Assembly (NCBI GenBank): GCA_036522275.1
Contig: DATDGC010000073.1
Location: 1,021-65,020 of the forward strand
Length of the DNA stretch: 64,000 nt
Origin: Burkholderiales bacterium
GTDB lineage: Bacteria; Pseudomonadota; Gammaproteobacteria; Burkholderiales; JAHFRG01
Direction of reading: 5' to 3'
A program made the position numbers and the translations under genes. The notes below the pieces were generated by a model, which saw only the letters and a program-made list of their open reading frames with translations, ran no database searches and was not told the DNA's origin. The stretch's first letter is position 1, and the number at the start of each line of letters is the position of its first letter. Below are positions 5,069 through 64,000 of the stretch, in pieces.

Positions 5069-5143
5069 TTTGCCTCTCCTTAGTTTGGCTAGTTAAACAT
5101 TCAGGTGAAACGCAACTCCGAAACCTCAGCGGCTGCCGCCCTC

Positions 5144-6073
5144 CTAGGCGCCAACATGCTGAGGTTTCGTTTTACTACGGTGCGAGGCAGGCTTCGCCCC
5201 GCTGCCGGTAAAGCTTCCTTGCAACAAATCCTGCAAATGCAATGCAAGCAGGCTGGCGACGCTCAAATCCGCCGTCGTGCCTGGATTGATTCCATCACGC
5301 TTGAGCTCGGCATCGAAAGCCAGCAATTGCGGCAACAAGGCTTGCGGTGAGTCACTGCGCTGCCATGTGCTGTCCAGCGCCGCAGCGCGGGAACTGACTT
5401 GCCGCGCCAGCTCGCTTCCGAATTTGCGCTCTACGTGACTGTCGGGAAAACGTGCCAGCAATGCCAGATAGGCCGACAGCACCGCCCATTCTTCGCCGGC
5501 AAAACGCGTAAGCGTTTCGCGCGCGCGAGGCACTCCCACATCAAAAACATCGGCAAATCCATTCGCGTACTGGCGCGCGATGCTGTCGCGCTCGCGCGCT
5601 TCCTGCATCGCGCCGAGCAGGGTAACCTGCGGCTTCTCGCTTATATCATGACGCGCGCTGCTGCCCAGCCCGGCAGGCTTGGCGAGGCGGATCGCCGCAT
5701 AAGTGAGTTCCGCATCCTGTTGCGTGAGCCGCTCCAGCACGCCGCGCACCTTCAGCAGCAATGCGTGCGCGCCGGATTCCTGCTGAGCGGCACAAAGCAG
5801 CGGTGCGGCGAGCAGCACAATGCCAAGATTGGTATTGCAGCCTACCGCTTGTTGCGTTGCTTCAACCGCGCGCAGGATGCGCTCGCCCACGCTTGCGCCA
5901 GGTACGGTCAACGGCGCGGCGATGGCGTTGGCGCTCGCCTCGAACTGCTGCACGGTCATGCCGTGACCGGCGCTGTAAATGCTGACGTTGCCGGGCTTTG
6001 GAGCGCGGATTTCGGCAACACAGGCGCTCTTCAACGCTTGCGCCAGCTGCTCGCTGGAGATTATGTTCAGCAT
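5144..6073 (-). CDS. triphosphoribosyl-dephospho-CoA synthase (CitG/MdcB)-like protein of H4MPT clusters
   Basis: ORF-track 5144..6151 trimmed to Met27 (MLNIISSEQLA...). KPGNVS and GTTADL motifs are typical of the CitG family. Confidence 0.65.
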   Translation of the reverse strand: MLNIISSEQLAQALKSACVAEIRAPKPGNVSIYSAGHGMTVQQFEASANAIAAPLTVPGASVGERILRAVEATQQAVGCNTNLGIVLLAAPLLCAAQQESGAHALLLKVRGVLERLTQQDAELTYAAIRLAKPAGLGSSARHDISEKPQVTLLGAMQEARERDSIARQYANGFADVFDVGVPRARETLTRFAGEEWAVLSAYLALLARFPDSHVERKFGSELARQVSSRAAALDSTWQRSDSPQALLPQLLAFDAELKRDGINPGTTADLSVASLLALHLQDLLQGSFTGSGAKPASHRSKTKPQHVGA

Positions 6074-12893: not shown

Positions 12894-14561
12894 ATGCTTA
12901 CTAAACTTAATGGCGGCAAAATCTACGACCCCGCCAATCAGGTCAACGGCGAAGTGCACCATGTATTTATTCGCGACGGCCGTATTGTCGCCGCGCCCAC
13001 TTCCGACGAGCGGGTGGAGCGCGAGTACGATGTTTCCGGCAGAATCGTGATGGCGGGAGCGATAGATCTACACACCCATATCGGCGGCGGCAAAGTGAAT
13101 ATCGCGCGTAACATGCTGCCCGAAGACCATCGCGGCGATATCGTTGAACGTACTCCGCTCACCCGTTCCGGCTGCGGTCATGCCGTGCCTTCCACGCTAA
13201 CCACGGGATACCGTTATGCCGAGATGGGCTATACCGCGTGCTTCGAACCGGCGATGCTGCCGGTGAATGCGCGCCAGGCGCACATGGAAATGGGCGACAC
13301 GCCCATCGTCGACAAGGGCGGCTATGCCTTGCTTGGAAGCGATGATTTCCTGCTGCGCATGCTGGCTGCCAAATCCGACCAAAAAGCAATCAACGATTAT
13401 GTGGCATGGACGCTCAATGCCGCGCACTGCATCGGCATCAAAGTGGTGAATCCGGGGGGCATCTCCGCGTTCAAATTCAACCAGCGCAAACTGGATGTGG
13501 ACGAGGAGCATGTGTATTACCATGTTACGCCGCGACGGATACTCAAAATCCTCACGCAGGCGCTCAGCGACATCGGCGTGCCGCATCCGCTGCATGTGCA
13601 TGGAAGCAATCTCGGCGTGCCGGGCAATGTGGAGACCACGTTGGAAACCATAAAAGCGGCCGAAGGCCTGCCGATGCACCTCACACACATCCAGTTCCAC
13701 AGCTACGACACCGAGGGAGACCGGAAATTTTCTTCCGGCGCGGCGCGCGTGGCCGAAGTCATCAACCACAACAAAAATATTTCCGCAGATGTCGGACAAA
13801 TCATGTTCGGCCAGACCGTGACTGCTTCCGGCGATACCATGGCGCAGTACCGCAACGCGCCGCATGGCCATCCGCAAAAATGGGTGGTGATGGACATCGA
13901 GTGCGACGCCGGCTGCGGCGTGGTGCCATTCCGCTATCGCGACAAGAATTTCGTCAATGCATTGCAGTGGGCTATCGGCCTGGAAATTTTCCTGATGGTC
14001 AACGACCCGTGGCGCATTTTCCTCACCACCGATCATCCCACCGGCGCGCCCTTCATGAGCTACCCTCACCTGATTAAACTGCTCATGGACAAAACTTATC
14101 GAAACAACACCCTTGCCGCCATCAACCCCGATGCTGCGGCAATGAGCACGCTGGCGAGCCTTACGCGTGAATATACTCTCTATGAAATCGCCATCATGAC
14201 GCGGGCTGCGCCGGCAAAAATCCTCGGCCTTGCCGACCGCGGGCATCTCGGGCCGGGCGCTGCCGCCGATATCACCGTCTACAGCGAAGATGCCGACAAG
14301 GAAAGAATGTTCGCCAAGCCCGATTATGTGTTTAAGGATGGCGAGCTGGTGGCGCAAAACGGCAAGATCGTCAAAGTCACCCGGGGCAATACGCACGTGG
14401 TGAAACCCGAGTTCGATAAAAGCATCGAAAAGCAGCTTAAATCCTATTTCGAGCGCTACCAAACAATACGCATGGACAACTTCAAGATTAGCGACGACGA
14501 GATGTACGAATTCGGGCACGGCAACAAACTCTTGCTGCATCCCTGCAGGAAAAACGGGTAA
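12894..14561 (+). CDS. fhcA: formyltransferase/hydrolase complex subunit A (FwdA-like amidohydrolase)
   Basis: 555 aa. GAIDLHTHIGGG is the metal-binding motif, and the protein resembles FwdA along its full length. Confidence 0.9.
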   Translation: MLTKLNGGKIYDPANQVNGEVHHVFIRDGRIVAAPTSDERVEREYDVSGRIVMAGAIDLHTHIGGGKVNIARNMLPEDHRGDIVERTPLTRSGCGHAVPSTLTTGYRYAEMGYTACFEPAMLPVNARQAHMEMGDTPIVDKGGYALLGSDDFLLRMLAAKSDQKAINDYVAWTLNAAHCIGIKVVNPGGISAFKFNQRKLDVDEEHVYYHVTPRRILKILTQALSDIGVPHPLHVHGSNLGVPGNVETTLETIKAAEGLPMHLTHIQFHSYDTEGDRKFSSGAARVAEVINHNKNISADVGQIMFGQTVTASGDTMAQYRNAPHGHPQKWVVMDIECDAGCGVVPFRYRDKNFVNALQWAIGLEIFLMVNDPWRIFLTTDHPTGAPFMSYPHLIKLLMDKTYRNNTLAAINPDAAAMSTLASLTREYTLYEIAIMTRAAPAKILGLADRGHLGPGAAADITVYSEDADKERMFAKPDYVFKDGELVAQNGKIVKVTRGNTHVVKPEFDKSIEKQLKSYFERYQTIRMDNFKISDDEMYEFGHGNKLLLHPCRKNG

Positions 14562-14708: not shown

Positions 14709-15605
14709 ATGGTCATTAACGGCGTCACCATAGACGACACCTTTGCCGAAGCCTTTGGCATGAAGGCGACCCGCGTCATCATCACCGCCCACAATCTCAA
14801 ATGGGCGTATCACGCGGCCACCGCGGCCACCGGTTTCGCCACTTCAGTAATCGCCTGCGGCTGTGAGGCGGGAATCGAGCGCAAGCTCGAGCCTGATGAG
14901 ACTAAGGACGGGCGCCCCGGTGCGGCGATATTGCTGTTCGCCATCTCGGGAAAGGAACTGGCTAAGCAGCTGGAGCGGCGCGTCGGCCAATGCGTGCTCA
15001 CCTCTCCCACCAGCGCCGCGTTTGCCGGTATAACCGAAGGCGAGCCGTTGCCATTGGGGAAAAACCTGCGTTACTTCGGCGACGGCTTCCAGTCCTCCAA
15101 GCTGATTGGCGGCAAACGCCTGTGGCGCGTGCCGGTGATGGATGGTGAATTCCTGTGTGAAGAAACCACCGGCATGACGAAAGCGGTGGGTGGGGGCAAT
15201 TTCCTGATTCTGGCGGAATCGCTGGCGCAGGCGCTCGCCGCTGGCGAAGCGGCCATCGAAGCCATGCGCAAAGTGCCCAACGTCATCATGCCTTTCCCCG
15301 GCGGCATCGTGCGCTCCGGGTCAAAAGTCGGTTCCAAATACAAGGCGCTCATGGCTTCCACCAACGATGCGTTTTGCCCGACCATTCGCGGCATCACCCA
15401 ATCCGAATTGTCTGAAGGCATCGAGGCGGTGCTGGAAATCGTGATTGACGGCCTCAACGAGCCTGATGTGCGCAATGCCATGCGAGCCGGCATCTCCGCC
15501 GCGTGCGCGCTGGGGGCAAAAAACGGTATACGCCGCATCACCGCAGGCAACTATGGCGGCAAGCTGGGGCAGTTTCATTTTCATTTGCGTCAAATCATGT
15601 CATGA
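14709..15605 (+). CDS. fhcD: formylmethanofuran--H4MPT N-formyltransferase (Fhc subunit D)
   Basis: 298 aa. MVINGVTIDDTFAEAFGMKATRVIITA is the Ftr-family N-terminus. Confidence 0.9.
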   Translation: MVINGVTIDDTFAEAFGMKATRVIITAHNLKWAYHAATAATGFATSVIACGCEAGIERKLEPDETKDGRPGAAILLFAISGKELAKQLERRVGQCVLTSPTSAAFAGITEGEPLPLGKNLRYFGDGFQSSKLIGGKRLWRVPVMDGEFLCEETTGMTKAVGGGNFLILAESLAQALAAGEAAIEAMRKVPNVIMPFPGGIVRSGSKVGSKYKALMASTNDAFCPTIRGITQSELSEGIEAVLEIVIDGLNEPDVRNAMRAGISAACALGAKNGIRRITAGNYGGKLGQFHFHLRQIMS

Positions 15606-21536: not shown

Positions 21537-21840
21537 GTCACGCTGGCAATCAATCCTATTATAGCCAGTTCGTTCGATAGTAGAAGATTAGATTATCAAC
21601 AAATTTCGGTTTGCCCACAGCATGTTCACCCTTGAGCGGTGCTTGGGGTGCGGCTGTGTTGAAGACACGTTTTAGATAGAATGTTATACCGTTGGGCAGA
21701 TATTTTAACCCGTGATGCGCACCCATGCTGCAAACTTCCCGAATTGAATGACGACTTGATTCTGCGATAGCATGACACAGCATGTTACAAACTCCGTATT
21801 TAAAGGCAGCTTTTAGGCTGTCTAATTCTTGTTAGCAATC

Positions 21841-22485
21841 ATGAACCGATTTGCCCCGTTCCTGCTTTTCTTGCTGCTCCTGGTTACACGCGGTAGCTCC
21901 TATGCCGGGGAACCTAGCCCTCCGATGCAACTAGAGAGTGATACGAAGCTTCAACCGTATGTTCATTGTGATGGGTTCGCTGAAGGAGTACGTGGAGTGA
22001 CTCAAGACCGGCGTCCGCAGACCGCCGAACCATGGCGGGAAGTGGGTTTCGGTGGCAAGAGCCAGCGTGTCTCGGTAATAGATGGCTACCGTGTGATGTA
22101 CTCGTATGCTAGGACCTATCCCTTCGCGAACCTGAAGGCTGAACGATCTGACCCTTCAAAATATCTAGAGGATAAACAGATCGTCACATCGTACTTTGCG
22201 GACATAGCGAAGGCGGATGGCAAATCAGATCTAGTTAACTTCTCCGGTCAGGGTTTCTCAGGCCAAACGCTCACGAAAAGAGAACTAACCGGAAGGACAC
22301 TCGGGATAACCCAGATTATGTGGGACGAAGACTCGGTAATTGTAACCATCTATTTCTTGAATCAAGCACCAGAGAATCGCAGGTTCAAGACCTACGTAGA
22401 ATTTATCTCGTTACGAGATAGTTTTATTCGTGGCTATATCGAATGTGTGACCAAGAAGAGATCAACTCCGATTCTTTCCCAATGA
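21841..22485 (+). CDS. secreted hypothetical protein (low-GC patch)
   Basis: ORF-track 21829..22485. The ATG at residue 5 gives the signal-peptide-like MNRFAPFLLFLLLLVTRGSSYA/GE. I recognise no family. Confidence 0.45.
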   Translation: MNRFAPFLLFLLLLVTRGSSYAGEPSPPMQLESDTKLQPYVHCDGFAEGVRGVTQDRRPQTAEPWREVGFGGKSQRVSVIDGYRVMYSYARTYPFANLKAERSDPSKYLEDKQIVTSYFADIAKADGKSDLVNFSGQGFSGQTLTKRELTGRTLGITQIMWDEDSVIVTIYFLNQAPENRRFKTYVEFISLRDSFIRGYIECVTKKRSTPILSQ

Positions 22486-40530: not shown

Positions 40531-41631
40531 CTACCGCGCCTGAGCACCGCTGTGTCGCGCCGGGCTGAGCAGCGCGGCCACCGCGTCCAGAAACCGCTGT
40601 ATGTCCGCGGCGTCGACGACGCCCATGGTCGAGACGCGGAAGATGGACGCCGCCAGCTTGCCCTGGCCGGCGTAGATGACGAAGCCCCGCAGTTTGAGGC
40701 CGTCGTGCAGCGCGGCGTAGTCCAGGCCGTCGGGCAGGTGATAGGCCCGCAGGACCACAGAGCGCTCGCCTTCCCGCAAGAGCGGCACCACACCGAGACG
40801 GACGAGGCCCTCTTCCACCGCCTCGGCAAGACGGCGGTAACATTCGTGGCGTATGCGCCATCCGCCCTGATCCTCGAACTCGCGCAGTGCTTCGCGCAGC
40901 GCGTAGAAGATGGGCACGGCGGGCGTGAAGGCGGTGTCGCGGGCGTCCTGGGCGCGGCAATGCCGTGCCAGATCCAGGTACACGCTGCGGCCGCCGTCCC
41001 CGTCGGGCAGCGCGTCCCGGCGCAAAATCACGAAGCTCACGCCCGGCGCGCCGTGCAGGCATTTGTTGGCGCTGGCGACGCAGGCCGTCACGCCCCAGGC
41101 GTCGAATTCCAGCGCTTCCGCACCGAAGCTGCTCACCGCATCCACCAGCAGCGCAATGTTACGCTCCCGGCACAGGCGGCCCACCGCTGCGACATCGTTC
41201 AGCCGCCCGGTGGTGGTTTCGTGCTGCACGACGGCCACGTGGGTAAAGCCCGGTTGCGCGTCCAGATGCCGGGCCAGCGCGTCCAGGTCCACTGGCGTGC
41301 CCCACGCCTGACGCGCTACCGCGTGGGCGATGCCGTGGCAGCCGGCGATATCCGCCAGACGCGCACCGTAGACGCCGTTCTCGATCACCAGCAGCCTTCC
41401 GTCCCGCGGCACCAGGCTCACGAGCATGGCTTCCACCGCCGCCGTGCCGGAACCGGACACCAGCACCGGCGCCCAGCTCTCCGGCGGCAGCGGATAGACT
41501 TCCAGCAGCCGGCGGCGAATCTCGTCCTGCAGCTCGCCGAATTCCCGCTCCCGGTGGCACAGGTCGGGCAGCGTCAGCGCCACGCGCACCCGTTCGGTCA
41601 GGTTCACGGGCCCGGGGTTGAGAAGAATCAT
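40531..41631 (-). CDS. phnW: 2-aminoethylphosphonate:pyruvate aminotransferase
   Basis: ORF-track 40531..41646 trimmed to MILLNPGPV, giving an ATGA overlap with ppd. Class-V aminotransferase with the PLP-lysine region ASANKCLHGAPGVSF, as in PhnW/AepZ. Confidence 0.85.
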   Translation of the reverse strand: MILLNPGPVNLTERVRVALTLPDLCHREREFGELQDEIRRRLLEVYPLPPESWAPVLVSGSGTAAVEAMLVSLVPRDGRLLVIENGVYGARLADIAGCHGIAHAVARQAWGTPVDLDALARHLDAQPGFTHVAVVQHETTTGRLNDVAAVGRLCRERNIALLVDAVSSFGAEALEFDAWGVTACVASANKCLHGAPGVSFVILRRDALPDGDGGRSVYLDLARHCRAQDARDTAFTPAVPIFYALREALREFEDQGGWRIRHECYRRLAEAVEEGLVRLGVVPLLREGERSVVLRAYHLPDGLDYAALHDGLKLRGFVIYAGQGKLAASIFRVSTMGVVDAADIQRFLDAVAALLSPARHSGAQAR

Positions 41632-42812
41632 GATGTCTTTGCGCATGGGTGGGCGGACAGCGACGGGCTGCCGATATGGTTCATGAGCCGGCGTAGCACG
41701 TCGGCGGGAGCCAGTCCCGGCCGGGGCGGTGTGGCCGCCACCCCCGGCGCGATCTTGAGGTGGACAAACACCGGTCCGATGCCGTTTCGCCCCTGTAGCG
41801 CCTCGTCGAGCAGCGACAGGTTGTCGCCCTCCGAAACTTCCGCGTAGCCGCAGGCGGCAGCAATGGCGGCAAACGAGATGTCCCGCGCCACGGTGGCTTG
41901 GCCGCCGGTGGAATCGTGCACCTCGTTGTCCAGCAGCACGTGCAGCAGGTTCCGCGGACGGTAAGCGCCGATGGTGGCCAGGTTGCCCATACGCATGAGC
42001 GCCGCGCCGTCGCCGTCCAGCACTACCACCCGCAGGTCCGGACGCGTGAGAGCCAGGCCCAGCCCGAACGAGGACGCGCAGCCCATGGAACCTACCATGT
42101 AGAGCTGATGAGCGTGGTCCCCCAGGGCGTACAGCTCGCGGCCGGTGTAGCCAGTGGTGGCGATCACCACGTTGTTGCGCTTCGGCACGAGCCGGGCGAC
42201 GCGCTCCAGCGCTTCGATGCGGCTCGGCCGCACCGCCGGTGGTGAGCGCCAGGCGCTACGCGGGGCCGCCCGCGGGGAGCGCGGCGGCGCTTCCACCGGC
42301 GCGGGCTTGCACGGCGCGAACCGGCCTTTGCGCACCAACAGAGCGTACGGGCGCTCGCGCTCGCCGATCGAGGCGTCCGCCTGCGCCAGCGCTTGGGCCA
42401 GCGCCTGGGGCGAGTCCGGCAGGTATGCCCAGGGGATCTCCATGATGTCCAGCAGCGCCGGGGTGATACGCCCCATCAGCGCGTGCTGCGGCTCATCGGC
42501 TACTCCCGGCTCGCCGCGCACGGTGACCAGCAGCAGCACCGGGATGCGAAACACATGGGTGAGCGAAGTCAGCGGGCTCACCGCGTTGCCGAGGCCCGAA
42601 TTCTGCATCAGCGCGATGCTGCGCCGGCCGCCCACCCAGGCACCGGCGGCGGCGGCCACCGCATCACCTTCGTTGGCCGAGGACACGTAGGTAAGCGCCG
42701 GGTCGGTGTTTACGTGGTTGATCAACCCAGTGAAAAACGAGCACGGCAACCCGGCGTACCAGCGATAACCCAGTGCCGCCGCCTGCAGCGCGAACTCGGC
42801 CGGCTCGATCAC
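41628..42812 (-). CDS. ppd: phosphonopyruvate decarboxylase (ThDP-dependent)
   Basis: ORF-track 41628..43163 trimmed to the Val118 codon (GTG), giving a GTGA overlap with the pepM stop. The N-terminus is [27 protein letters not shown], and [13 protein letters not shown]...LDN is the ThDP motif. Confidence 0.85.
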
Positions 42813-44470
42813 GAAAGCGGCCCTTCGCACTCGCCCGCGCTGCTTAGCCCGTGGGCGAAATCGACGGCGCGGCGCAGATCGTCCGGGTTGTTCACGTCCA
42901 GCCAGTGGCCGTTCACGTACAGCACCTGCACGGGGTGCCCACTGTCGATCAGATAATTGAGCAGGTCCGGCAACCCGAGCTGCGTGAAGTCGGGCCGCTT
43001 GCCCAGCGCGTCCAGCGCCTGCAGTAGCCACCGGCGGCCGGCGCCCTGTACCCGCAGCATGCCGATCCACTGCCCGCTCGCCACGCCGGGCCCGGGCCGG
43101 GCGTTCACCCGTAGCAGCCGCACCTCCTGGCGGAACAAGGAGCGGTCGTCGGGGACCGAGCAATAGGCCAGGTCGCGCTGGCGCTCCGCCGGCACCGGCG
43201 AGGAATCCACCACCACCGCCACCTCTGCCGGGGTTTCCAGCAAGTCGCGCAGTATGTAGCTGCGAAACAGCAGGTCACCGTAGCTCACCACCGTATCCTT
43301 GCCGATGGCATCGCGGGCGCAGGCGAGGGAGGCAAGTTCGCCGCTCTCGGCATGGCCGCGGTTGTGCACGATCTTGATCCCCACCATGTCGATGGCCTGC
43401 GCCTTGTAGCCGGCGACCACGGTGATGTTGTTGACGGACTGCCGCTTGAACTCGTCCACCAGTCTCCGCAACAGCGGCCGTCCCGCCACCGGCAGCATGG
43501 CCTTGGGACGGTCCTCGGTCAGCGTGTCCATACCCTCGCCGCGACTGGCAGCCAGCACCAGCGCCGACAGGTCACGACCGGCTGCGGCGTACTGGCGCTC
43601 CGCCGCCAGCAGTTCGTCCGCCGACTGCAGCCGGAAAATCTCGTTGACCGGCGCGATCCGGTCCTCCACGTTCACCAGCGTCTGGGTGGTGTGGATCTCG
43701 CGGGTGAGCTCCTGCATGGCTGACACAGCCGCGCGCAGCGTGTGGTTGGCCCAGATGACGAGGCGGATGCCTGCGGCGCGGAACACGTCGGTGGGGGTGC
43801 TGTAGTACTTGGTGGGAACGATGACCAGCGGCGAGCGCCCGGCCCACTCCCTGGAGAAGGCAAGAATTTCATCGGCACTGCTTTTCTTGCTGTGGATCAG
43901 AATAGCGTCGGCGCCGGCTTGGCGGTACGCCTCGGCGCGGCGCAGGGCCTCGTCCAGGCCCCAGCCCGCGATCAGCGCCTCCACCCGCGCGACGATGACG
44001 AAATCCGGATCCTTCTGGCTGTCCTTTCCGGCGCGGATCTTGCCCTGAAACTCGGCGACGTCGGCCAGCGGTTGGCGATGGCCGTTGATGAAGCTGTTGG
44101 TTTTGGGGAACAGCTTGTCCTCGATGCACACGCCGGCGATGCCCCGCTGCTCCAGCTTCTGCACCAGGCGGCGCATGTTGTTGAAGTCGCCGTAGCCAGT
44201 GTCGCCGTCGATGAGGATGGGAATGCGGCTGGCATCGGACATGAACTCCAGCATGTCCACCACCTGGGTCCAGCTCGCCTCGTTGTTGTCGCGCACCCCG
44301 AACTGGGCGGAGAGGGTGAGCCCGCTGGCCCAGATGCCCTTGAAGCCGGCCTCCTCGACGATGCGGGCGCTGATGCCGTTATGCGCCTCCATGAGGAACT
44401 CCAGCTCGGAAGAGTTGAGAAGCGCGCGCAGGGCAGCGGCTTTGGTGGGGTGGGGTGGGGGTCTGTCCAT
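42809..44470 (-). CDS. pepM: phosphoenolpyruvate mutase fused to a C-terminal nucleotidyltransferase (PntC/LicC-like)
   Basis: ORF-track 42809..44818 trimmed to Met117 ([18 protein letters not shown]). [10 protein letters not shown] matches the PepM-diagnostic EDKX5NS motif, and DGDTGYG is present. The C-terminal 250 aa or so has an NTP-transferase fold ([11 protein letters not shown]...[12 protein letters not shown]). Confidence 0.9.
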
Positions 44471-44499
44471 AAATGGTTCCTTGAAGAAGAGCGCGGTGT

Positions 44500-45252
44500 T
44501 TACCACTGCAATCGGGGGAGTATCTCCAGGCGGGCGCGCTCGACGTCGTCGGGAAAGTCGATCTCTATCCAGGGCAGGCCGGTGACATCTTCTACTCCGA
44601 ACTGGCGCGGCCCGGCCTCCAGCATCAGGTCCCGCAAGGCCTCTTCGTGGGGCTCCTGACCGCGGCCCGTTTCCAGGTAGACTGAGGCCCGCGCCACCAG
44701 CGCGCGGCAGGTTTGCCTGGACAGGCGAAAGAAGCCTACCGACTCGCCGCAGACATCGAATGCGAGATTCGGCGCGACCTGCTTCCTGAATTCGACGATG
44801 CGTCCGTCGCGAACGCACACCTTCACCGGCTCGTCGCCGGGCTCGAAGTTCCGGTCCAGCAGCAGGCAGTCGGGCTGCCGGGAGTCCACCAGCGCACGCA
44901 GTATACGCTCATCGTAAAGCAAGTCGGCGTCCATGAGCAGCGTGTCCCGTCCCGTCAGCAGCGGTGCGCGGGCGTGCCACACGGTGACGATGCTGCCGAG
45001 CTGATAATCCGGATTGAACACGGTATCAGCGGCCAGCGCCTCCGGCAGCCGCGCCAGCTCTGCACGCACCTGATCCGCCGCGTAGCCGACCGCCACCCAC
45101 ACGTCAGCCACGCCGCACTCGCGCAACAGGTGGAGATGGCGTTCCAGCAGGCTCCGCCCGCCGAAGCGCAGCAGGCATTTCGGAACGGCGCTGGACTGCG
45201 CATCCTGCGCCAGCCGCGTACCCCGGCCGGCTGCGAGTATCACCGCCTGCAT
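44500..45252 (-). CDS. stand-alone LicC/MobA-like nucleotidyltransferase
   Basis: ORF-track 44500..45285 trimmed to [14 protein letters not shown] (G-loop) followed by PKCLL. Confidence 0.75.
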
Positions 45253-54677: not shown

Positions 54678-55778
54678 TTAATCGGAGGAGTCTAGCATGC
54701 GCTGCAAGGACAGCCGCGCCAGGTCGGCGTCGCGCTGCGGCACGCGGATTTGGTTCACTACCTTGCCCGCAACCAGATTTTCCAACGACCAGGCGAGATG
54801 CTGGGGATCGATGCGCGCCATGGTCGAACACATGCACACCGTGGGCGCCATGAACTGCACGATTTTGCCTTCCGGCTTGACTTCCTCCGCAAGGCGGCTT
54901 ACGAGGTTCAGCTCCGTGCCCACCAGCCAGCGTGTGTTAGGCTTGCCCGCTTTTACGGTTTTAAGAATGGTTTCGGTGGAGCCCACGTAATCCGAGAGCT
55001 TACACACCTCGAAATTGCATTCGGGGTGTGAAATCACGATGCCGTCGGGGTGCTGATTGCGGAATTTGAGCACGTGCTGCGGCTGGAACATCTGGTGCAC
55101 CGAGCAATGGCCTTTCCACAGCAGGATTTTTGCTTTCTGGATTTGCTCGGCAGTCAGCCCGCCCATCGGCTCGTCGGGATCCCATACCGGCATTTCATCG
55201 AGCGGAATGCCCATCTTGTAGCCGCTCCAGCGGCCCAAGTGTTGGTCAGGAAAGAACAGTGCCTTCTCGCGCTGCTTGAATGACCATTCGAGAATTTTTC
55301 CGGCGTTGCTGGAAGTGCAGACGATGCCGCCATGCTCGCCGCAGAATGCTTTCAAATCGGCGGCGGAGTTAATATATGTCACCGGTGAGACCGTTTGCTC
55401 GGGATCGAAAACTTCGGCAAGCTCGCGCCACACCCGCTCCACTTTGGCAAGGTTAGCCATGTCCGCCATCGAGCAGCCGGCGTTCATGTCAGGCAGAATC
55501 ACGGTGCGCCTGGCTAAGGTGACGATATCCGCCACTTCAGCCATGAAGTGCACGCCGCAGAACACAATGTATTCAGCGGAAGTCTCCGCCGCCAAACGCG
55601 AGAGCTTGAGCGAATCGCCAGTGAGATCGGCGTGCTTGTAGACATCGGCGCGTTGATAGTGGTGGCCGAGTATCACCGCGCGCTTGCCCAAAGCAGCCTT
55701 CGCCGCGAGGATGCGTTCCTTGCAGGCTTCGTCCTGCATCCGGCTGAATCGGTCAAAAGCTATTGCACTGGATTGCAT
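54678..55778 (-). CDS. nadA: quinolinate synthase
   Basis: 366 aa. VFCGVHFMAE and CSMA / CMCSTM cluster-Cys contexts. Confidence 0.9.
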   Translation of the reverse strand: MQSSAIAFDRFSRMQDEACKERILAAKAALGKRAVILGHHYQRADVYKHADLTGDSLKLSRLAAETSAEYIVFCGVHFMAEVADIVTLARRTVILPDMNAGCSMADMANLAKVERVWRELAEVFDPEQTVSPVTYINSAADLKAFCGEHGGIVCTSSNAGKILEWSFKQREKALFFPDQHLGRWSGYKMGIPLDEMPVWDPDEPMGGLTAEQIQKAKILLWKGHCSVHQMFQPQHVLKFRNQHPDGIVISHPECNFEVCKLSDYVGSTETILKTVKAGKPNTRWLVGTELNLVSRLAEEVKPEGKIVQFMAPTVCMCSTMARIDPQHLAWSLENLVAGKVVNQIRVPQRDADLARLSLQRMLDSSD

Positions 55779-55869
55779 GGCAAAATCTCATAAAGTTCCA
55801 CTGCTGACGCTGTGTTGATGCATCGCTAACATTACCATAATAAGACAAAAAATCCAGCCCAATGTTGCA

Positions 55870-56316
55870 TCAATGCAGGATAAATCTTGGCAGTGCCAAA
55901 ATCGCGTCGCGGTTGCTCCAGGAAAAGCATTTTTGCGCCGCTTCCTGATACGGCAACCAGGCAAAACCTAGATGCTCGCGCGGTGCAACCGCCACTGGAA
56001 GCGGCTTCGGTACCAGCAAACCAAAGACATGCTCGGTATTTTTCGTCACTCGCGGAGGATAGCGGTGCCGCCACTCAGGAAAAATTTTATATTGGTTCTC
56101 GACGTTCCAATCCGTCAGCGCATACTTCCGCGCATCCAGCCTGGTCTCTTCCAGTACTTCACGAATCGCGGTTTGCTCCAAAGTTTCACCCTCATTCAAA
56201 CTGCCGGTCACGGATTGCCAGTAGTCGGGATGGTCGGCGCGTTCAAGTAACAGCACCTGTAGATCGGGGGTATGAACTATTACCAGGACTGAAACAGGTA
56301 TCTTGTAAGTCTTCAC
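55870..56316 (-). CDS. nudB: NUDIX hydrolase, dihydroneopterin-triphosphate diphosphatase-like
   Basis: 148 aa. Nudix box GSLNEGETLEQTAIREVLEETRL. aspS-nudB neighbourhood as in enterobacteria. The GTG start overlaps the upstream ORF stop (GTGA). Confidence 0.75.
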   Translation of the reverse strand: MKTYKIPVSVLVIVHTPDLQVLLLERADHPDYWQSVTGSLNEGETLEQTAIREVLEETRLDARKYALTDWNVENQYKIFPEWRHRYPPRVTKNTEHVFGLLVPKPLPVAVAPREHLGFAWLPYQEAAQKCFSWSNRDAILALPRFILH

Positions 56317-56678
56317 GGAGTCCGCTTGTTGTCAATTAAGTCAATATACTCATCCGTATGGTACTCAATCGCTTCAGAAGCATAATTCAGATCCACATCA
56401 TAAGCGGCATTGAAGAGAATATTGAGCGCAGCGAACATGTTGAATTCCAACCCCGATTCCTTCATCTGTTGTTTCACTTCGTCGAGTCCTAACGCTGAAG
56501 GTACTATTGTGTTACGGAATGGCTCAAACGCATTTAGCACTTTCCGCTTTTGCTCAGAGTCAGGGGAAACCGCTAGGAGATCGACAATGCTATTTAAGAG
56601 CGTTTCGACAATCTCGGTTTGCGGGAGAAAATTGAACGTCCTTCCACTACTGAATCGGCTCAAAGTAATCTTCCTCAA
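56313..56678 (-). CDS. hypothetical protein (cassette ORF-121; possibly the 3' part of a frameshifted gene)
   Basis: Low-GC ORF with only a TTG start and no ATG in the first 70 codons or so. It overlaps ORF-70 by 32 nt in another frame. No family recognised. Confidence 0.35.
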   Translation of the reverse strand: MRKITLSRFSSGRTFNFLPQTEIVETLLNSIVDLLAVSPDSEQKRKVLNAFEPFRNTIVPSALGLDEVKQQMKESGLEFNMFAALNILFNAAYDVDLNYASEAIEYHTDEYIDLIDNKRTP

Positions 56679-56859
56679 TTATCCCCGTACCGATTAGACG
56701 TCTCATTTCACCTGGTGCTTTGACCAGGCATTTTTCGAGAACGTTACGCATTAAGTCCGCATCCTCAGGAAAATCTCCGCTGCCTGACCATTCATCGCTG
56801 ATGCGCTCGGCGATAGCCCTTGCCCACATACGACGGTTTTCAAGACGCTGGAGCTTCAT
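56647..56859 (-). CDS. hypothetical protein (cassette ORF-70)
   Basis: The ATG lies 5 nt after the DpnI-like stop. 70 aa, acidic. No family recognised. Confidence 0.35.
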   Translation of the reverse strand: MKLQRLENRRMWARAIAERISDEWSGSGDFPEDADLMRNVLEKCLVKAPGEMRRLIGTGIIEEDYFEPIQ

Positions 56860-56864
56860 AATTA

Positions 56865-57635
56865 TTAAATTACTCGATACTTTCCGCCACCTTTAAATTC
56901 AAGGTAATTCTGATCACGCAGCACTTGTAGCTGCTGGCGAATTTTGTCCTTAATAAAATTGTTTTTTGGATGCATTTTCTTTAGTCCCGCTTCGAATCGG
57001 TACATATCACTTAATGAAAACTCGGAGACCCCGATTTGCTCAATACAGCGCATCACGTCAAGGGCCCAGCCACGTGCTTCGATGTTTTTCGTTTTCTTGA
57101 GAAAAACGGTTTTTCCCCAGGTCTCTAGCACTTGCTTGTCCGGCACAAACTGTTTGTTCAGGACGTAATGGATCCTACCGATTTCTAGGATTTGATCAAG
57201 CAGTATGTTGCAACCTACCCAACCTGCTCGTCGAGCGGTGTCCTTAAGAGGTTTTCGCTTTTCAATAATTCTCGGCGCAAAGAAGTGACCCGGTACCACA
57301 AAAAAATTGAGGACCTCCAGGAGGCGTGGGTCGTAGGACAGAAAAAAGAAATTGGGATTGTTGCTCGATTGCAACCGGTCGAGCATCGTTGCGTACGCAC
57401 CGTCCGTCACCTTGCGCGCGAAATTATTCTGCTTGCTCTTGAGCTCATACTGCTCGGAACAAACAGAGCAATAAAAATCAAGAACGGGTCTGTTGTTGCG
57501 TTCGCGTTCGATAGGATTTCCACACGAGGCACAAATGATATTACGGCGCGCCCAATCTTCGCTCATCACGCGAATTTTCTGCGCAGCGCTTGAATAACCG
57601 ACCACCAGACTAGAGTCCAGCGATAAGGTCTTCAT
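56865..57635 (-). CDS. DpnI-family methyl-directed type IIM restriction endonuclease (Gm6ATC-specific family)
   Basis: 256 aa, collinear with my recollection of S. pneumoniae DpnI: NNRPVLDFYCSVCSEQYELKSK, DGAYATM, NNPNFFFL, ARRAGWVGCNI, DMYRFE, KIRQQLQVLRDQNYLEFKGGGKYR (PD-(D/E)XK N-domain plus winged-helix C-domain). Confidence 0.9.
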   Translation of the reverse strand: MKTLSLDSSLVVGYSSAAQKIRVMSEDWARRNIICASCGNPIERERNNRPVLDFYCSVCSEQYELKSKQNNFARKVTDGAYATMLDRLQSSNNPNFFFLSYDPRLLEVLNFFVVPGHFFAPRIIEKRKPLKDTARRAGWVGCNILLDQILEIGRIHYVLNKQFVPDKQVLETWGKTVFLKKTKNIEARGWALDVMRCIEQIGVSEFSLSDMYRFEAGLKKMHPKNNFIKDKIRQQLQVLRDQNYLEFKGGGKYRVI

Positions 57636-57662
57636 GTTTCCTTTGCGTCCTCTACGGTAAAT

Positions 57663-59441
57663 CTAGTTTGCCGGCTTTACATCACGTAGCCGAATATGCA
57701 GTTCCCGCAATTGTTTTTCATCAACCGGGCTCGGCGCCTGGGTAAGCAGGCATTGCGCGCGCTGGGTTTTGGGGAAGGCAATCACGTCGCGGATGGATTC
57801 CGCGCCCGCCATCAGGGTAACAATGCGGTCGAGACCGAAGGCGATGCCGCCGTGCGGTGGCGCGCCGTATTGCAACGCGTCGAGCAGGAAACCAAATTTC
57901 TGCCGTGCTTCTTCTTCGTTGATGTTGAGTGCGCGGAAGACTTTGGATTGCACTTCCTCGTGGTGAATCCGCACCGAGCCGCCGCCGATTTCCCAGCCGT
58001 TCAATACCATGTCATAGGCTTTGGCGTGCGCCTTCGACGGATCGCTGTCGATGAACGCTTCGTGTCCGTCTTTTGGCGAAGTAAAGGGATGGTGCAGTGG
58101 ATCCCAGCGCTTTTCTTCGTCGTTCCACTCAAACATCGGGAAATCCGTGACCCATAGCGGCTTCCAGTCTTGCTCGGCGTAGCCTTTTCCATGCCCGATT
58201 TTTTCGCGCAGCGCGCTGAGAGAGTCGTTCACAATTTTCGCCTTGTCCGCACTGAAGAAAATCAGATCGCCGTCCTGCGCCGCGCTGCGCTCGAGAACCG
58301 CCTTGATAACATTCTCGGACAGGAACTTGAGGATGGGCGACTGCAAACCTTGCGTGCCTCTCGCTTTTTCGTTGACCTTGATGTAGGCAAGTCCCTTCGC
58401 GCCGTAAATCGCGACAAACTCTGTATAGTCATCAATGTCCTTGCGCGTAAGCGCGCCACCGTTGGGTACACGCAGTGCGGCGATGCGCCCATCGGACAGC
58501 TCAGCGGCGGTACGGAAGACCTTGAACTCGACCGCTTTCATCAAATCGGTAAGCTCGGTAAGCTGCAGCGGCACACGCAGGTCGGGTTTGTCCGAGCCGT
58601 AACGCTGCATCGTTTCCTGGTATGTGAGGCGCGGGAAAGGCTTGGGCAGCTCCACCTGCATTACTTCCTTGAAGAGGTTGCGGATCAGCTCTTCCATCAG
58701 CCCTGTGATCTCGTCTTCGTTCAGGAACGAAGTTTCGATATCAATCTGCGTGAATTCCGGCTGGCGGTCGGCGCGCAAGTCCTCGTCGCGGAAGCATTTG
58801 GTGATCTGGTAATAGCGGTCGAACCCGGCTATCATCAAAAGCTGTTTGAACAACTGCGGCGACTGCGGCAGCGCGAAAAACTGCCCGGGATAAATGCGCG
58901 ACGGCACCAGGTAATCGCGTGCGCCTTCCGGCGTGGATTTGGTGAGTATCGGAGTCTCAATATCCAGGAAACCGTGCGCGTCGAGGAATTTCCGCACCGC
59001 CATCGCGACTTTATAACGCAGCTTGAGGTTCGTCTGCATTTGCGGACGGCGCAAGTCAATCACGCGGTGAGTGAGCCGGGTGGTTTCGGAAAGATTTTCA
59101 TCGTCGAGCTGGAACGGCGGTGTGAGCGAGGAATTGAGAATCTCGATCTCGTGCGCCAGCACTTCCACTTCGCCGCTGACCAAGTCCGGGTTCACCGTGC
59201 CTTCAGGGCGGTGACGCACCTTGCCGGTAACTTTCAAAACGAATTCGTTGCGGATTTTTTCCGCGATCTTGAACATCTCCGGCCGGTCGGGATCGCATAC
59301 CACCTGCACCAGCCCTTCGCGGTCGCGCAAGTCGATGAAAATCACCCCCCCATGGTCGCGCCGCCGGTGCACCCAGCCGCACAGGGTCACGCTTTGCTGC
59401 AGATGCTTCCGGCTGACGAGGCCGCAATACTCAGTACGCAT
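57663..59441 (-). CDS. aspS: aspartate--tRNA ligase
   Basis: ORF-track 57663..59483 trimmed to [43 protein letters not shown], which matches the E. coli AspS N-terminus. Class II motifs are present. Confidence 0.95.
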
Positions 59442-61290: not shown

Positions 61291-62045
61291 GACGTGCCCC
61301 TCGTTGCCGGCTCGTCTGCGCGCCGGCGCGCGATATCCAGGAACACTTCTTCCAGGTTGCTGCGGCCATAGCGCGTAAGCAGCGCTTGCGGCGTGCCCTG
61401 GTCAACGATTTTTCCTTCGCGCATCATGATCACATCAGTGCACATGCGCTCCACCTCCAGCATATTGTGCGAAGCGACCAAAAGCGTCGCGCCGCTGTGC
61501 TTCTGATAATTTATGAGCAAGCCGCGCATGCGGTCGCCCATATCGGGATCAAGCGAAGCGGTGGGCTCATCGAGCAGCAGCACTACCGGCTCATTGAGCA
61601 GCGACTTGGCAAGCGCAACCCGCGTCCTTTGCCCTGCGGACAGCGTGCCATAGGGCCGGTGCATGAAAGCGCCGATTTGCAATTCTTCCGAGAGTTCTTC
61701 AAGACGCGGCCTGACATTTTTCAACCCGTATAAGCGCGCATACACAGTCAGGTTTTCCGCGACGGTAAGGCGCTTGGGTAAATCCACGTAGGGGGAAGTG
61801 AAATTCATGCGCGGCAGCACGCGGTAACGATGCCGCAAGATATCCTCGCCCAGAACAGTCACGCGCCCCGCAGTTGGCAGCAGTAAGCCCAGCAATACCG
61901 AAAGCGTGGTGGTCTTACCCGCGCCGTTGCCGCCCAAGAGCGCGCAAGTGGTGCCCTGGCGCACGCTGAAGCTCACCGAATCCACAGCCAGTACCTTGCC
62001 GAAACGCTTGGTCAGGCCCCCAACTGATATTGCGTAATCGCTCAT
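61287..62045 (-). CDS. ABC transporter ATP-binding protein
   Basis: 252 aa. Walker A GGNGAGKTT, signature LSAGQRTR, Walker B LLLDEPTASLD. Confidence 0.9.
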   Translation of the reverse strand: MSDYAISVGGLTKRFGKVLAVDSVSFSVRQGTTCALLGGNGAGKTTTLSVLLGLLLPTAGRVTVLGEDILRHRYRVLPRMNFTSPYVDLPKRLTVAENLTVYARLYGLKNVRPRLEELSEELQIGAFMHRPYGTLSAGQRTRVALAKSLLNEPVVLLLDEPTASLDPDMGDRMRGLLINYQKHSGATLLVASHNMLEVERMCTDVIMMREGKIVDQGTPQALLTRYGRSNLEEVFLDIARRRADEPATRGTS

Positions 62046-62259
62046 TTGTGTTTGGCTGAGACGGCGGTTTTTTCCACTATTTAGCCGTTGCGCACGTGAT
62101 TATTGTTCAGATAGGTTCTATACAAAACGCGGGGATTATGCTAGTTTGTCGCTGCCTGAAATTCGGGCATTTTTTATAAATCCGGCTCAAATCTGAATTA
62201 CCCCATAAAAACTGCAGGCAAAAGCTAATTTTAACTTAAATCATCATGGAGAATTGACC

Positions 62260-62526
62260 ATGACAGCAGTTACGAAACTTACGGGAATCGCTCTGGCCTG
62301 CGCCGCGGCTGGAATGTTTGTAACAGCCGGCATCGGCAATGCCGTTGCAGCCGAAGGTAAGGTTCGCTGTGAAGGCGTGAACGCATGCAAAGGCAAGAGC
62401 GACTGCAAGTCCGCCAAGAACGCTTGCAGCCCAGGCCAAAACGCTTGTAAAGGCCAAGGCTATGTGGTGATGAGCGAAAAAGACTGCAAGGCTGCAAAAG
62501 CCAAGGCTAAGCCTACAGGCTACTAA
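62260..62526 (+). CDS. secreted 6-Cys, Lys-rich RiPP precursor (bufferin BufA2-like)
   Basis: The ORF track starts at TTG 62254. The ATG at 62260 lies about 8 nt after GGAGA. A Sec-type leader [33 protein letters not shown] is followed by the core [45 protein letters not shown] (NAC(K/S) occurs 3 times). It lies immediately upstream of the DUF692 and DUF2063 genes. Confidence 0.65.
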
Positions 62527-62572
62527 TCAGCAACCCAAACACTTTGTCTGCTCGACGAGCCCGCAGGGTGTC

Positions 62573-63460
62573 ATGTTCCATAGCTTCTGTTATTCTTTTC
62601 TTATGCTCCACTCTACCAAATCCCGCAAACCCGATTATTTAGGCTTTGGTCTGGGGTTGAGGATTCCTCACTACGACGAGATTCTTGCAACCCGTCCCAG
62701 AGTGGATTGGTTTGAGGTTTTGTCTGAGAACTATTTGGTCCCAGGAGGGAAACCTCTCCATTACCTGGAGCGCATTCGCGCAAATTATCCTGTGGTCATG
62801 CACGGTGTGTCGCTCTCGATTGGCGGGTCTGACCCTTTAAACCTGGATTATCTAAAACAACTCAAGGCTTTGGCAGACAGAATCGAGCCTAAATGGATCT
62901 CCGACCACTTATGCTGGACCGGAGTAGGCGGACTAAACCTGCATGACCTGATGCCGCTTCCCTATACCGAGGAAGCGGTGAAGCATGTGGTCTCAAGAGT
63001 CAACCAAGTCCAGGATTTCCTGGGGCGCAGAATCCTCTTGGAGAACGTCTCAAGCTATGTCACCTATAAGCAGTCCCAACTCACCGAGTGGGAGTTCCTG
63101 ACCCATATTGCAGAGCAGGCCGACTGCTTAATCCTGCTCGACATCAACAACATTTATGTCAGCAGCTTCAACCACGGCTTTGAGTGTCAGAACTATCTCA
63201 ACGGCATCCCCATCGAGAGAGTGCAGCAGTTTCACTTGGCGGGCCACCAAAACTGCGGAAATTACATCGTGGACACCCATGATCATCCGATAATCAACCC
63301 GGTGTGGGCGCTCTATGAGAAAGCCCTGAAACGTTTTGGCCCCGTCTCCACCATGATAGAGCGGGACGACAACATCCCGCCCCTCAAAGAGCTCCTCGCC
63401 GAACTTAATCACGCCAGAACAATTGCTGGGCTGATATTGGCCAAAGCAAAAGCTGCATGA
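62573..63460 (+). CDS. DUF692 / MNIO-family (MbnB-like) multinuclear non-heme iron oxidative enzyme
   Basis: 295 aa (alternative start Met11 at 62603). [49 protein letters not shown] and DTHDHP are DUF692 hallmarks. Confidence 0.9.
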
Positions 63461-64000
63461 AAGTGCTTTCGGATTTGCAGAAAGAATTCCAGGACTACGT
63501 GTTCAAGCGTGACCGGCACATGGAGCGCGAAGTCGTGGGCACCCGGCGCGCCAGCTCCAAAACGCGGCTTGGCATTTATTCCAGCGCCTACCGCCTGCGG
63601 CTCCTGGAAGCGCTGGACACCGATTACCCCGCCTTGCGCGCGCTGGCGGGCGATGAGCATTTCGAGAAACTGGGCTATGCCTATATCGAAAGCCACCCTT
63701 CCCCCTATTACAACATGCGCTGGTACGGCGGCGAACTCGCGCAATTCCTGAAAACCACTCCGCCCTACAACGAGCATCCGGTGTTAAGCGAAATGGCCGC
63801 TTTCGAGTGGATTATGGCGCTCGCCTTTGACGCCCCTAACGATCCGGTAGTAACAGTGGACGACATGGCCAAAGTTCCAGCGGAGGCCTGGCCAGATCTG
63901 GTGTTCATGCCCCACGCTTCACTGCAGCGCTTGAACCTGGAATGGAACGTGCCGGTGTTCTGGAAAGCGGTGGATAAAAAAGAACAGCCTGAACTCCCGC
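63457..64000 (+). CDS. DUF2063-family partner protein (MbnC/BufC-like), 3'-truncated by the window edge
   Basis: Absent from the ORF track because it is open-ended. Its ATG forms an ATGA overlap with the DUF692 stop. It reads [65 protein letters not shown]..., the DUF2063 N-terminal pattern. Confidence 0.75.

Follow-up and report, generated by a model that had tools for sequence, protein, structure and literature searches.

A three-gene cluster of the type-2 bufferin (captophorin) family, bufA2-bufB-bufC, in an uncultured Burkholderiales betaproteobacterium

At its right-hand end, the 64,000-nt stretch of DNA analysed here (hereafter the window) carries a gene for a small, Cys-rich precursor followed by genes for a DUF692 multinuclear iron oxidase (MNIO) and a DUF2063 protein, an arrangement that the initial annotation had read as a bufferin locus of the six-Cys BufA2 class. 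This raises the question of whether these genes make up a whole bufferin system, to which of the known types it belongs, how it came to lie where it does and what its product might do. Our analysis indicates that the locus is very probably a complete and vertically inherited type-2 bufferin (captophorin) cluster, bufA2-bufB-bufC, in an uncultured betaproteobacterium of the Burkholderiales. The family was already characterised in 2024, and the locus is an ordinary further copy with a few small quirks. In the HMM searches that had been suggested, each of the three genes scored above the cut-off of a model dedicated to its family (NCBIfam equivalogs in the case of BufA2 and BufB, the Pfam model for DUF2063), and we found no evidence contrary to the identity of the locus.

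The precursor gene, bufA2 (62260..62526, plus strand, as are all features described below), runs from an ATG at 62260 to a TAA ending at 62526 and encodes 88 residues. A ribosome-binding site, GGAG (62248..62251), can be read from the sequence 8 nt 5' of the ATG, and the ATGGAG of this region is kept in three of four aligned syntenic loci, the exception being L169 with ATGGAC. An identical 88-aa product is found in a public gene call, the NCBIfam BufA2 model NF050166 recognises the precursor with 71.8 bits (cut-off 60, E=4e-20), and comparison with four orthologues revealed purifying selection (pN/pS 0.06-0.25). As first described, this product joins a Sec-type leader to a Lys-rich core with six Cys. 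The leader (residues 1-30, 62260-62349) is predicted by classical rules to be a Sec-dependent signal peptide: it has K6, a hydrophobic stretch of 20 residues (mean Kyte-Doolittle 1.79) and A-V-A ahead of the cleavage site proposed after residue 30. It also contains a seventh Cys, C14. The 58-aa core (62350-62523) contains 11 Lys and six Cys, at precursor positions 37, 43, 49, 56, 63 and 76, the latter invariant and in register across 108 database homologues and 59 operon-linked (MNIO-linked) relatives. An AlphaFold2 model generated with 108 sequences was of low confidence (mean pLDDT 53.7, insufficient for a fold search); it places a helix at residues 4-23, followed by two strands, the first of them at CysI, and a helix at CysVI, an order of elements that agrees with the published description. 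The assignment to BufA2 rather than to the DUF2282 BufA1 class also held, as the precursor passed NF050166 and had no Pfam match of any kind, to DUF2282 or otherwise, at E<=0.01. Nor does the precursor contain an EGKCG motif.

The second gene, bufB (62603..63460), encodes an MNIO (DUF692) bufferin maturase of 285 aa, which scored 397 bits against NF050167 MNIO_BufB (cut-off 310, E=2.6e-119) and 387 bits against PF05114. In NCBI, close homologues bear the names 'MNIO family bufferin maturase' and 'BufA2 family periplasmic bufferin-type metallophore'. The best identity obtained on scanning genomes and metagenomes with BufB was 75%; the protein database supplied closer orthologues. A DUF692/MbnB-like oxidase thus follows the precursor, as had been proposed, but the distance between the two genes required correction. 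Alignment with L168 and L173 identifies ATG 62603 as the conserved start, giving the 285 aa seen in most close homologues and a bufA2-bufB spacer of 76 nt, while an upstream alternative, ATG 62573, which would give 295 aa, is not conserved in orthologues and leaves a spacer of 46 nt, not 47.

Across 81 homologues of BufB, ten positions are invariant (in 295-aa numbering, H77, H112, E157, D190, N193, H221, D234, H236, E263 and D265). These include positions that we take, from the MNIO literature and MbnB structures, to be metal ligands and the catalytic base, and on this reading a putative set of MNIO metal-ligand residues, together with the proposed catalytic Asp, is intact in BufB. The catalytic Asp is assigned as proposed for MNIOs in a study (PMC13097082) that also separates 'Cys-Lys' MNIOs, which have an Asp at the position of Phe250 in FonB, from 'Lys-Cys' MNIOs, which have a Phe. 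By alignment, BufB carries the 'Cys-Lys' class marker Asp at D266 (Asp in 72/81 homologues), within a motif, ERDD, whose ERD part is invariant in all 81.

The third gene, bufC, begins within the last codons of bufB, and the ATGA overlap between oxidase and DUF2063 genes that had been noted was found at 63457-63460. The window holds its 5' 181 codons (63457..64000), the remainder being cut off by the window end. BufC matches PF09836 (DUF2063) with 73 bits (cut-off 27, E=2.3e-20), and the NCBIfam HvfC model, whose cut-off is 142 bits, gave only 39.7. The full gene could be read from a near-identical public contig, L001 (1 mismatch in 5253 nt), where it occupies positions 4710-5495, encodes 261 aa and ends 242 nt beyond the window. 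The C-terminal domain, which lies on this contig outside the window, can be classed as RRE-like by profile comparison: when a profile was built from 43 BufC homologues, it matched PDB 3DEE, the DUF2063 partner from N. gonorrhoeae, over its C-terminal domain (residues 152-227, E 9.6e-5). This structure was reached only by profile search, a single-sequence search of the PDB with BufC having returned nothing relevant. In addition, L001 shows where the operon ends, as a convergent ssb gene follows 26 nt after bufC. The fourth, DoxX-like gene (bufD) that had been expected past 64000 is therefore ruled out; it is absent from this extension of the contig, as it is from C. vibrioides buf2. A Pfam scan of downstream genes found DoxX in only 2 of 63 related loci, confirming the three-gene layout as the norm among relatives.

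Related uncultured Burkholderiales have the operon at the same position on the chromosome. In L173, the same three genes (BufB 90.5% and BufC 82.9% identical) lie at this position, flanked by an ABC protein and SSB that are 89-93% identical, and they recur at the same place in a MAG locus, L175. In both, aspS-DUF502-Zn-ribbon lies on one side and ssb-MFS on the other; the upstream neighbour in L175 differs, with no ABC genes. These data bear on the origin of the cluster, since the G+C content of its genes (bufA2 0.547, bufB 0.51, bufC 0.56) is lower than that of the window (0.587), and the low values of bufA2 and bufB in particular might suggest that the cluster was acquired recently, as a foreign island. 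The dip, which the initial annotation had pointed out, is real. However, it is present at the syntenic orthologous locus L173 as well and, because syntenic relatives have it too, gives no evidence of recent transfer, appearing instead as an old property that they hold in common. Furthermore, the same neighbours surround the buf genes in L173 and L175, the divergence of the buf genes resembles that of the genes flanking them, and no mobility genes or repeats were seen adjoining the operon. Recent horizontal transfer was thus rejected on the grounds of synteny and shared composition, and we consider a foreign island to be extremely improbable.

Comparative footprinting of the upstream region yielded a candidate sigma70-type promoter (62119..62147), which consists of a -35 element, TATACA (62119-62124), a 17-nt variable spacer and an extended -10 element, TGcTAGTTT (62139-62147), with a predicted transcription start near 62154. 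Two blocks, CTAT(A/G)CAAAA and TGCTAG(T/A)TT, are invariant and fixed in spacing across five orthologous upstream regions (those of the window, L169, L168, L173 and L175), while the spacer and the remaining upstream sequence diverge; L175 keeps the promoter block despite its different upstream neighbour. A scan with a generic sigma70 consensus reported no plus-strand site upstream of bufA2, missing the candidate because its -10 matches at only 3/6 positions. A sigmaF-type motif, GTAAGG-N15/16-CGAC, was not found upstream of bufA2 in the window or in four orthologues with two mismatches allowed, no exact match to it exists anywhere in the 64-kb window, and no sigma/anti-sigma genes lie near the operon. 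Related orphan bufA2 genes and many buf2 operons have this motif upstream. From these patterns we infer that a sigma70-like extended -10 promoter, and not one of sigmaF type, would drive the operon. As the sigmaF-type promoter of C. vibrioides buf2 is absent, copper induction is only putative here.

Potential RNA elements were also predicted. A terminator-like scan identified an imperfect palindrome or RNA hairpin, TGCCTGAAATTCGGGCA, followed by a T-run (62153..62175), located where the transcript is predicted to begin (predicted -9.1 kcal/mol, z -1.7). It is kept in four of five orthologous loci, being missing in L173, and could possibly serve as an operator, a 5' stabilising stem or an attenuator. 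Folding predicted a further stem-loop within the bufA2-bufB spacer (62539..62571; -17 kcal/mol, z -1.55 for the window sequence), with a consensus fold across three orthologues that shows no compensatory changes; this might conceivably set the ratio of precursor to enzyme, either as a partial terminator or by affecting mRNA stability. Rfam gave no match at E<=1 in the region 61900-62700.

What such an operon would produce can be pictured by analogy with C. vibrioides Buf2 and related systems. The 88-aa BufA2 would be synthesised in the cytoplasm and, prior to export, a complex of BufB (the multinuclear iron oxidase) and BufC (with its DUF2063 and RRE-like domains) would oxidise central Cys residues of the core, each undergoing a four-electron oxidation to a 5-thiooxazole. 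The predicted targets are CysII, CysIII and CysV, each of which is followed by Lys, and probably CysIV. The Sec leader would carry the modified peptide to the periplasm and be cut off after Ala30, a CysI-CysVI disulfide would form, and the thiooxazole thiolates would bind Cu(I)/Cu(II), thereby buffering excess copper. The initial annotation's description of the product chemistry as unknown was overstated, given that in C. vibrioides Buf2 the four central Cys lose 4 Da each (-16 Da) and CysI and CysVI form a disulfide (PMC11626156), and that 5-thiooxazole is reported to be the general product of MNIO/DUF2063 pairs (PMC13097082).

With respect to the metal, Cu is the inducer of the two Caulobacter bufferins, Fe, Zn and Mn having no such effect, and it is Cu that they protect against; the affinity of Buf1 for Cu(I) is very high (PMC11626156), and other thiooxazole peptides bind Cu as well (PMC13097082). 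These observations weigh against the idea that the physiological role is defence against some other stress (other metals, chromate or cadmium, reactive chlorine or oxygen species) and not copper, for which a case can be made from the response to chromate and cadmium of the sigmaF regulon that includes both Caulobacter buf operons (PMC3511200), from the response of SigF/NrsF in Azospira to reactive chlorine species (PMC4436054), and from fusions of bufferin domains to MerC, which suggest roles with other metals (PMC12452194). In line with this idea, the window ORFs revealed no copper-related gene or regulator when 23 of them were scanned against a family library and the rest, the majority, were assessed as ORF calls. 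On balance, we judge a role other than copper defence to be rather improbable. The number of thiooxazoles is the subject of another alternative. Where 102 of 108 homologues have a Lys after CysIV, the precursor in the window has Ser-Pro, and because Ser-Pro replaces Lys, CysIV may be a poorer substrate. At the extreme, this insertion would make CysIV a non-substrate, leaving a mature peptide with three thiooxazoles, not four, and an altered metal site. Ser/Thr-Pro with one extra residue after CysIV is confined to 3/108 homologues (the window precursor, P0001 and P0002), and BufB retains the Asp for which contact with the substrate Lys has been proposed (PMC13097082); the variant has also persisted between proteins 86% identical, and is therefore tolerated. 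Yet the post-CysIV Lys is replaced by Gln, Ala or Gly in other members of the family, and DUF2282-type substrates are modified without any conserved context (PMC13097082). Complete loss of CysIV modification seems doubtful, if somewhat more plausible than a role unconnected with copper.

A further possibility adds to the main explanation and does not exclude it, namely that the operon mainly supplies BufBC from a housekeeping-type promoter, with stress-induced orphan bufA2 paralogues elsewhere in the genome providing substrates of equal or greater importance. Beyond the operon lineage, the nearest BufA2 homologues (77-84% identity) are encoded by stand-alone genes located between ispG and hemA. 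One contig with such an orphan, L084, derives from the sequencing run that also yielded L001, and MAG GCA_050741655.1, the only genome in which operon and orphans were found together, has the syntenic operon at L175 and a tandem pair of orphans at L174. Moreover, GTAAG[GA]-N15-CGAC, a sequence similar to the C. crescentus sigmaF site GTAACC-N16-CGAA (PMC3511200), is present at the orphan genes, while the operon upstream regions have no such site, and orphan and tandem precursors have already been reported for the family (PMC12452194). Against this, an orphan copy in the window's own genome is an assumption, the promoter assignments for operon and orphans are computational, and we found no demonstration in the literature consulted of bufferin maturases modifying orphan precursors in trans. 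The protein accession prefixes of orphan precursors P0017 and P0025 differ from those of close BufB proteins, which carries no weight for or against a shared genome. We regard such a division of labour as unlikely. Less probable again is a split system in the full sense, in which, in this Burkholderiales lineage, a sigma70-driven maturase operon with an atypical precursor (Ser/Thr-Pro after CysIV) would be paired with one or more orphan BufA2 precursors under a sigmaF-like ECF promoter, and the variant peptide would differ in the number or geometry of its thiooxazoles. If true, one BufBC pair would serve several differently regulated precursors, and the peptide from the variant precursor would perhaps have a different metal preference.

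The reading that we prefer, a complete and vertically inherited type-2 bufferin cluster, adds a further environmental example from the betaproteobacteria to a RiPP family whose members already number in the thousands, and a locus of this kind would be annotated automatically by current NCBI models. The rare substitution that removes the near-invariant Lys after CysIV is a detail of modest value. The existence of operon-linked and orphan precursors with apparently different promoters could guide experiments on precursor-maturase matching and regulation.

Seen beside known systems, the locus has the same composition as C. vibrioides buf2ABC (CCNA_03001-02999; Leprevost et al. 2024, PMC11626156), with a precursor, an MNIO and a DUF2063 protein but no DoxX/bufD, and its precursor likewise has a Sec signal peptide and a six-Cys core of ~60 residues, a likeness drawn from the published description and from the BufA2/BufB equivalog models. 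It differs in its host, which is a betaproteobacterium unlike C. vibrioides, in having a sigma70-like extended -10 candidate in place of the sigmaF-type promoter, and in having Ser-Pro instead of Lys after CysIV. Bufferin 1 (bufABCD), a periplasmic copper chelator with Cys-derived thiooxazoles, employs the same MNIO and DUF2063 pair. However, its precursor is of the DUF2282 type with four conserved Cys, and its operon includes DoxX and often adjoins sigF-nrsF, whereas the precursor in the window has six Cys and no DUF2282 match and its operon has neither DoxX nor sigma/anti-sigma genes nearby.

The EGKCG captophorins (oxazolin/HvfABC of H. influenzae, fontiphorin and gonophorin; PMC13097082, PMC11252979) also combine an MNIO with DUF2063/RRE to make Cu-binding products with 5-thiooxazoles, and the closest structures solved for BufB and BufC of the window are those of PDB 3BWW and 3DEE. 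They are of the 'Lys-Cys' type, whereas the window precursor is 'Cys-Lys' and without EGKCG repeats; ERDD in BufB corresponds to ERDF in 3BWW, and the HvfB model NF003818 gave BufB 283 bits, below its cut-off of 360. Methanobactin biosynthesis (MbnABC) similarly uses an MNIO-family enzyme to convert Cys of a ribosomal peptide into a copper-binding heterocycle, but the MbnB model TIGR04159 scored only 76 bits with BufB (cut-off 325). Membership of the Buf1, HvfABC/oxazolin and methanobactin groups is thus ruled out by the lack of DUF2282 and DoxX, the HvfB and MbnB scores below cut-off and the lack of EGKCG. The enzyme's partner is MbnC in methanobactin and a DUF2063 protein here, the window precursor is Sec-exported and far larger than that of methanobactin, and where methanobactin carries oxazolone/thioamide groups, the product predicted for the window is of the thiooxazole type (PMC13097082).

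The three genes described in the initial annotation, an 88-aa ORF with six cysteines followed by a DUF692 gene and a DUF2063 gene that overlaps it by ATGA, are all present, and their products match the BufA2, BufB and DUF2063 models far beyond chance. The precursor matched the NCBIfam BufA2 equivalog at 71.8 bits (E 4e-20; cut-off 60), the DUF692/MNIO enzyme matched the MNIO_BufB equivalog at 397 bits (E 2.6e-119; cut-off 310), and the N-terminal domain of the partner protein matched Pfam DUF2063 at 73 bits (cut-off 27). The HMM searches that had been proposed gave scores above the cut-off with all three models, bearing out the main reading as a BufA2-class bufferin locus. Other identities were rejected: the MNIO gene scored below the cut-off both as HvfB (283 bits; cut-off 360) and as MbnB (76 bits; cut-off 325), and a Pfam scan gave no DUF2282 match for the window precursor. 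The cluster is an ordinary Buf2 bufferin (captophorin) locus; this family already has curated models, a characterised prototype and a genomic survey.

The precursor gene bufA2 (62260-62526, plus strand) begins with an ATG 8 nt downstream of GGAG, and its pN/pS of 0.06-0.25 against four orthologues indicates that this small ORF is a real gene. The product has an N-terminus with a single Lys, a 20-residue hydrophobic stretch and A-V-A ahead of residue 31, and a 58-residue core with 6 Cys and 11 Lys. All 59 MNIO-linked relatives and all 108 database homologues that were aligned have these six Cys (CysI-CysVI) in register, without variation. A low-confidence AlphaFold2 model of the precursor (pLDDT 53.7) has a strand at CysI, followed by another strand and by a helix at CysVI, an order with which the published description of bufferins agrees (PMC11626156). 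After CysIV the window precursor reads Ser-Pro-Gly, where 102 of the 108 homologues have Lys-Gly, and the only sequences among them with the extra Pro, in Ser-Pro or Thr-Pro form, are two very close relatives; we regard this Ser-Pro variant as one of only two leads worth a bench test.

We place bufB at 62603-63460 (plus strand) because ATG 62603 is conserved in an alignment with two orthologues, along with GTTATTCTTTTCTYATG directly before it, because close BufB homologues are mostly 285 aa long, and because the match to the family model starts at residue 15 when this 285-aa form is used. The start assumed initially, ATG 62573, which is also the choice of one gene caller, was abandoned, as it aligns with TTTTG and TTTCG in the two orthologues. 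With the revised start the bufA2-bufB spacer measures 76 nt and contains a weak candidate stem-loop (62539-62571; predicted fold -17 kcal/mol, z -1.55), for which the orthologue comparison revealed no compensatory changes. Within BufB, residues H77, H112, E157, D190, N193, H221, D234, H236, E263 and D265 (295-aa numbering) are invariant across 81 homologues; we take them to be putative metal ligands, by reference to MbnB structures, and BufB retains every position that such a multi-iron site calls for, as well as the ERD motif. The residue following ERD is Asp (ERDD), which Gadgil et al. describe in MNIOs with Cys-Lys dyad substrates (PMC13097082). For the Lys-Cys (EGKCG) class the same authors give Phe, and 3BWW, the structure of a Histophilus MNIO, has ERDF at this site. 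Among related loci, two Legionella genomes (L047 5555-5881; L049 5515-5874) and a gammaproteobacterial MAG (L065 1747-2022) have BufB-like MNIO genes adjoining precursors of 'GKNxCK'-type repeats (5, 12 and 14 Cys), not of the 6-Cys domain. In L057 (5582-5833) and L080 (5523-5780) the adjoining gene encodes a small Cys/Pro-rich, lipoprotein-like protein with CETPC..PC..CKC motifs, unlike BufA2 in appearance.

Two relatives, L173 and L175, carry the same three buf genes flanked by the same neighbours. In L173 one flank consists of aspS, DUF502, a Zn-ribbon gene and an ABC pair and the opposite flank of ssb, MFS and uvrA, with identities to the window of 90.5% for BufB, 82.9% for BufC, 89.3% for the ABC ATPase and 93.2% for SSB; L175, from a Burkholderiales MAG, also retains the DpnI-aspS adjacency of the window. 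The lower G+C remarked on in the initial annotation was confirmed, with the buf genes lying a few percent below their flanks in the window and in L173 alike. Because the locus is syntenic with these relatives and the dip is common to the window and L173, we infer that it is old and vertically inherited, and the same two observations rule out a fresh island.

Elsewhere in the window, the restriction enzyme gene of the DpnI family (PF06044, 233 bits) occupies 56865-57635 on the minus strand, in a low-G+C islet (0.45-0.48; 55750-57700) between a NUDIX gene and aspS; two small ORFs in the same islet (56313-56678 and 56647-56859) had no family hits. Tetrahydromethanopterin-linked C1 genes for the formaldehyde-activating enzyme Fae (4559-5068, minus strand), an amidohydrolase-type subunit (12894-14561, plus strand) and formylmethanofuran:H4MPT formyltransferase (14709-15605, plus strand) hint at a methylotroph-like or formaldehyde-oxidising host. 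A 218-aa ORF with a hydrophobic N-terminus (21829-22485, plus strand) is low in third-position G+C (0.51) and drew no Pfam hit, and at 40552-44818 long ORFs of very high third-position G+C (0.76-0.81) overlap on both strands, where gene calls are ambiguous.

Outside the operon lineage, the closest BufA2 homologues are encoded by stand-alone, or orphan, genes of related Burkholderiales that sit between ispG and hemA (L082 8001-8258; L084 1654-1911; L085 8001-8261; L170 3021-3281), with 77-84% identity to the window precursor. Sequencing run ERR4660998 yielded both L084 and L001, a near-identical public contig reaching past the window end. The MAG GCA_050741655.1 combines the syntenic bufA2BC operon (L175) with two orphan BufA2 genes in tandem (L174 1954-2527), one of which has a lipoprotein-type leader (VAGC). 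Orphan and tandem precursors have already been described for the bufferin family (PMC12452194).

The motif GTAAG[GA]-N15-CGAC was found upstream of orphan bufA2 genes and of 14 of 112 MNIO-linked Buf2 loci (including L031, L033, L036 and L062), with about 0.06 hits expected by chance. It lies about -135 from the orphan ATG in L082-L087 and L170-L171 and at 1768-1792 in L174; the 14 MNIO-linked loci are mostly from Methylotenera, Sulfuriferula and Burkholderiales. The dyad closely resembles GTAACC-N16-CGAA, the sigmaF site of C. crescentus (PMC3511200). It is absent upstream of the window operon and its four orthologues, and from the whole window. These five loci have in common TATACA-N17-TGcTAGTTT, with a variable spacer, which footprinting suggests to be a candidate sigma70-type extended -10 promoter; transcription from it is predicted to begin at a palindrome/hairpin (62153-62169) kept in 4 of the 5. 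The other lead worth a bench test is that the maturase operon and the orphan precursors seem to be divided between promoter types, sigma70 driving the former and a sigmaF type the latter. Just 5' of the bufA2 ribosome-binding site, the block GCTAATTTTAACTTAA (62220-62245) is invariant in four syntenic loci and missing from L175, where the hairpin abuts the ribosome-binding site. A second dyad, GCAATCCAG-N14-15-CCGGTCT, lies upstream of bufA2 in six buf2 operons (L016, L022, L024, L035, L038 and L045), three of them in Steroidobacteraceae MAGs, and looks like another ECF-type promoter.

The bufC gene runs from 63457 (plus strand) beyond the window end, and is complete, at 261 aa, on L001, which differs from the window at 1 base in 5253 and adds 2 kb. 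A profile of 43 BufC homologues matched (E 9.6e-5) the gonococcal partner protein 3DEE in its C-terminal domain. On L001 the bufC stop lies 26 nt from that of ssb, a convergent gene, and an MFS transporter gene, likewise on the minus strand, comes after ssb. The operon therefore consists of three genes, and the DoxX-like fourth gene that had been expected past 64000 does not exist. Of the 63 closest BufB loci with a bufC that could be called, only 2 have a same-strand downstream DoxX.

By homology with C. vibrioides Buf2, BufB and BufC would most likely convert each of the four central Cys by oxidation to a 5-thiooxazole (-4 Da) ahead of Sec export, a CysI-CysVI disulfide would form next, and the periplasmic peptide would chelate copper (PMC11626156, PMC13097082). 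The C. vibrioides buf2 operon 'lacks a bufD1-like gene' (PMC11626156), and it and the window locus have the same three-gene layout without DoxX.
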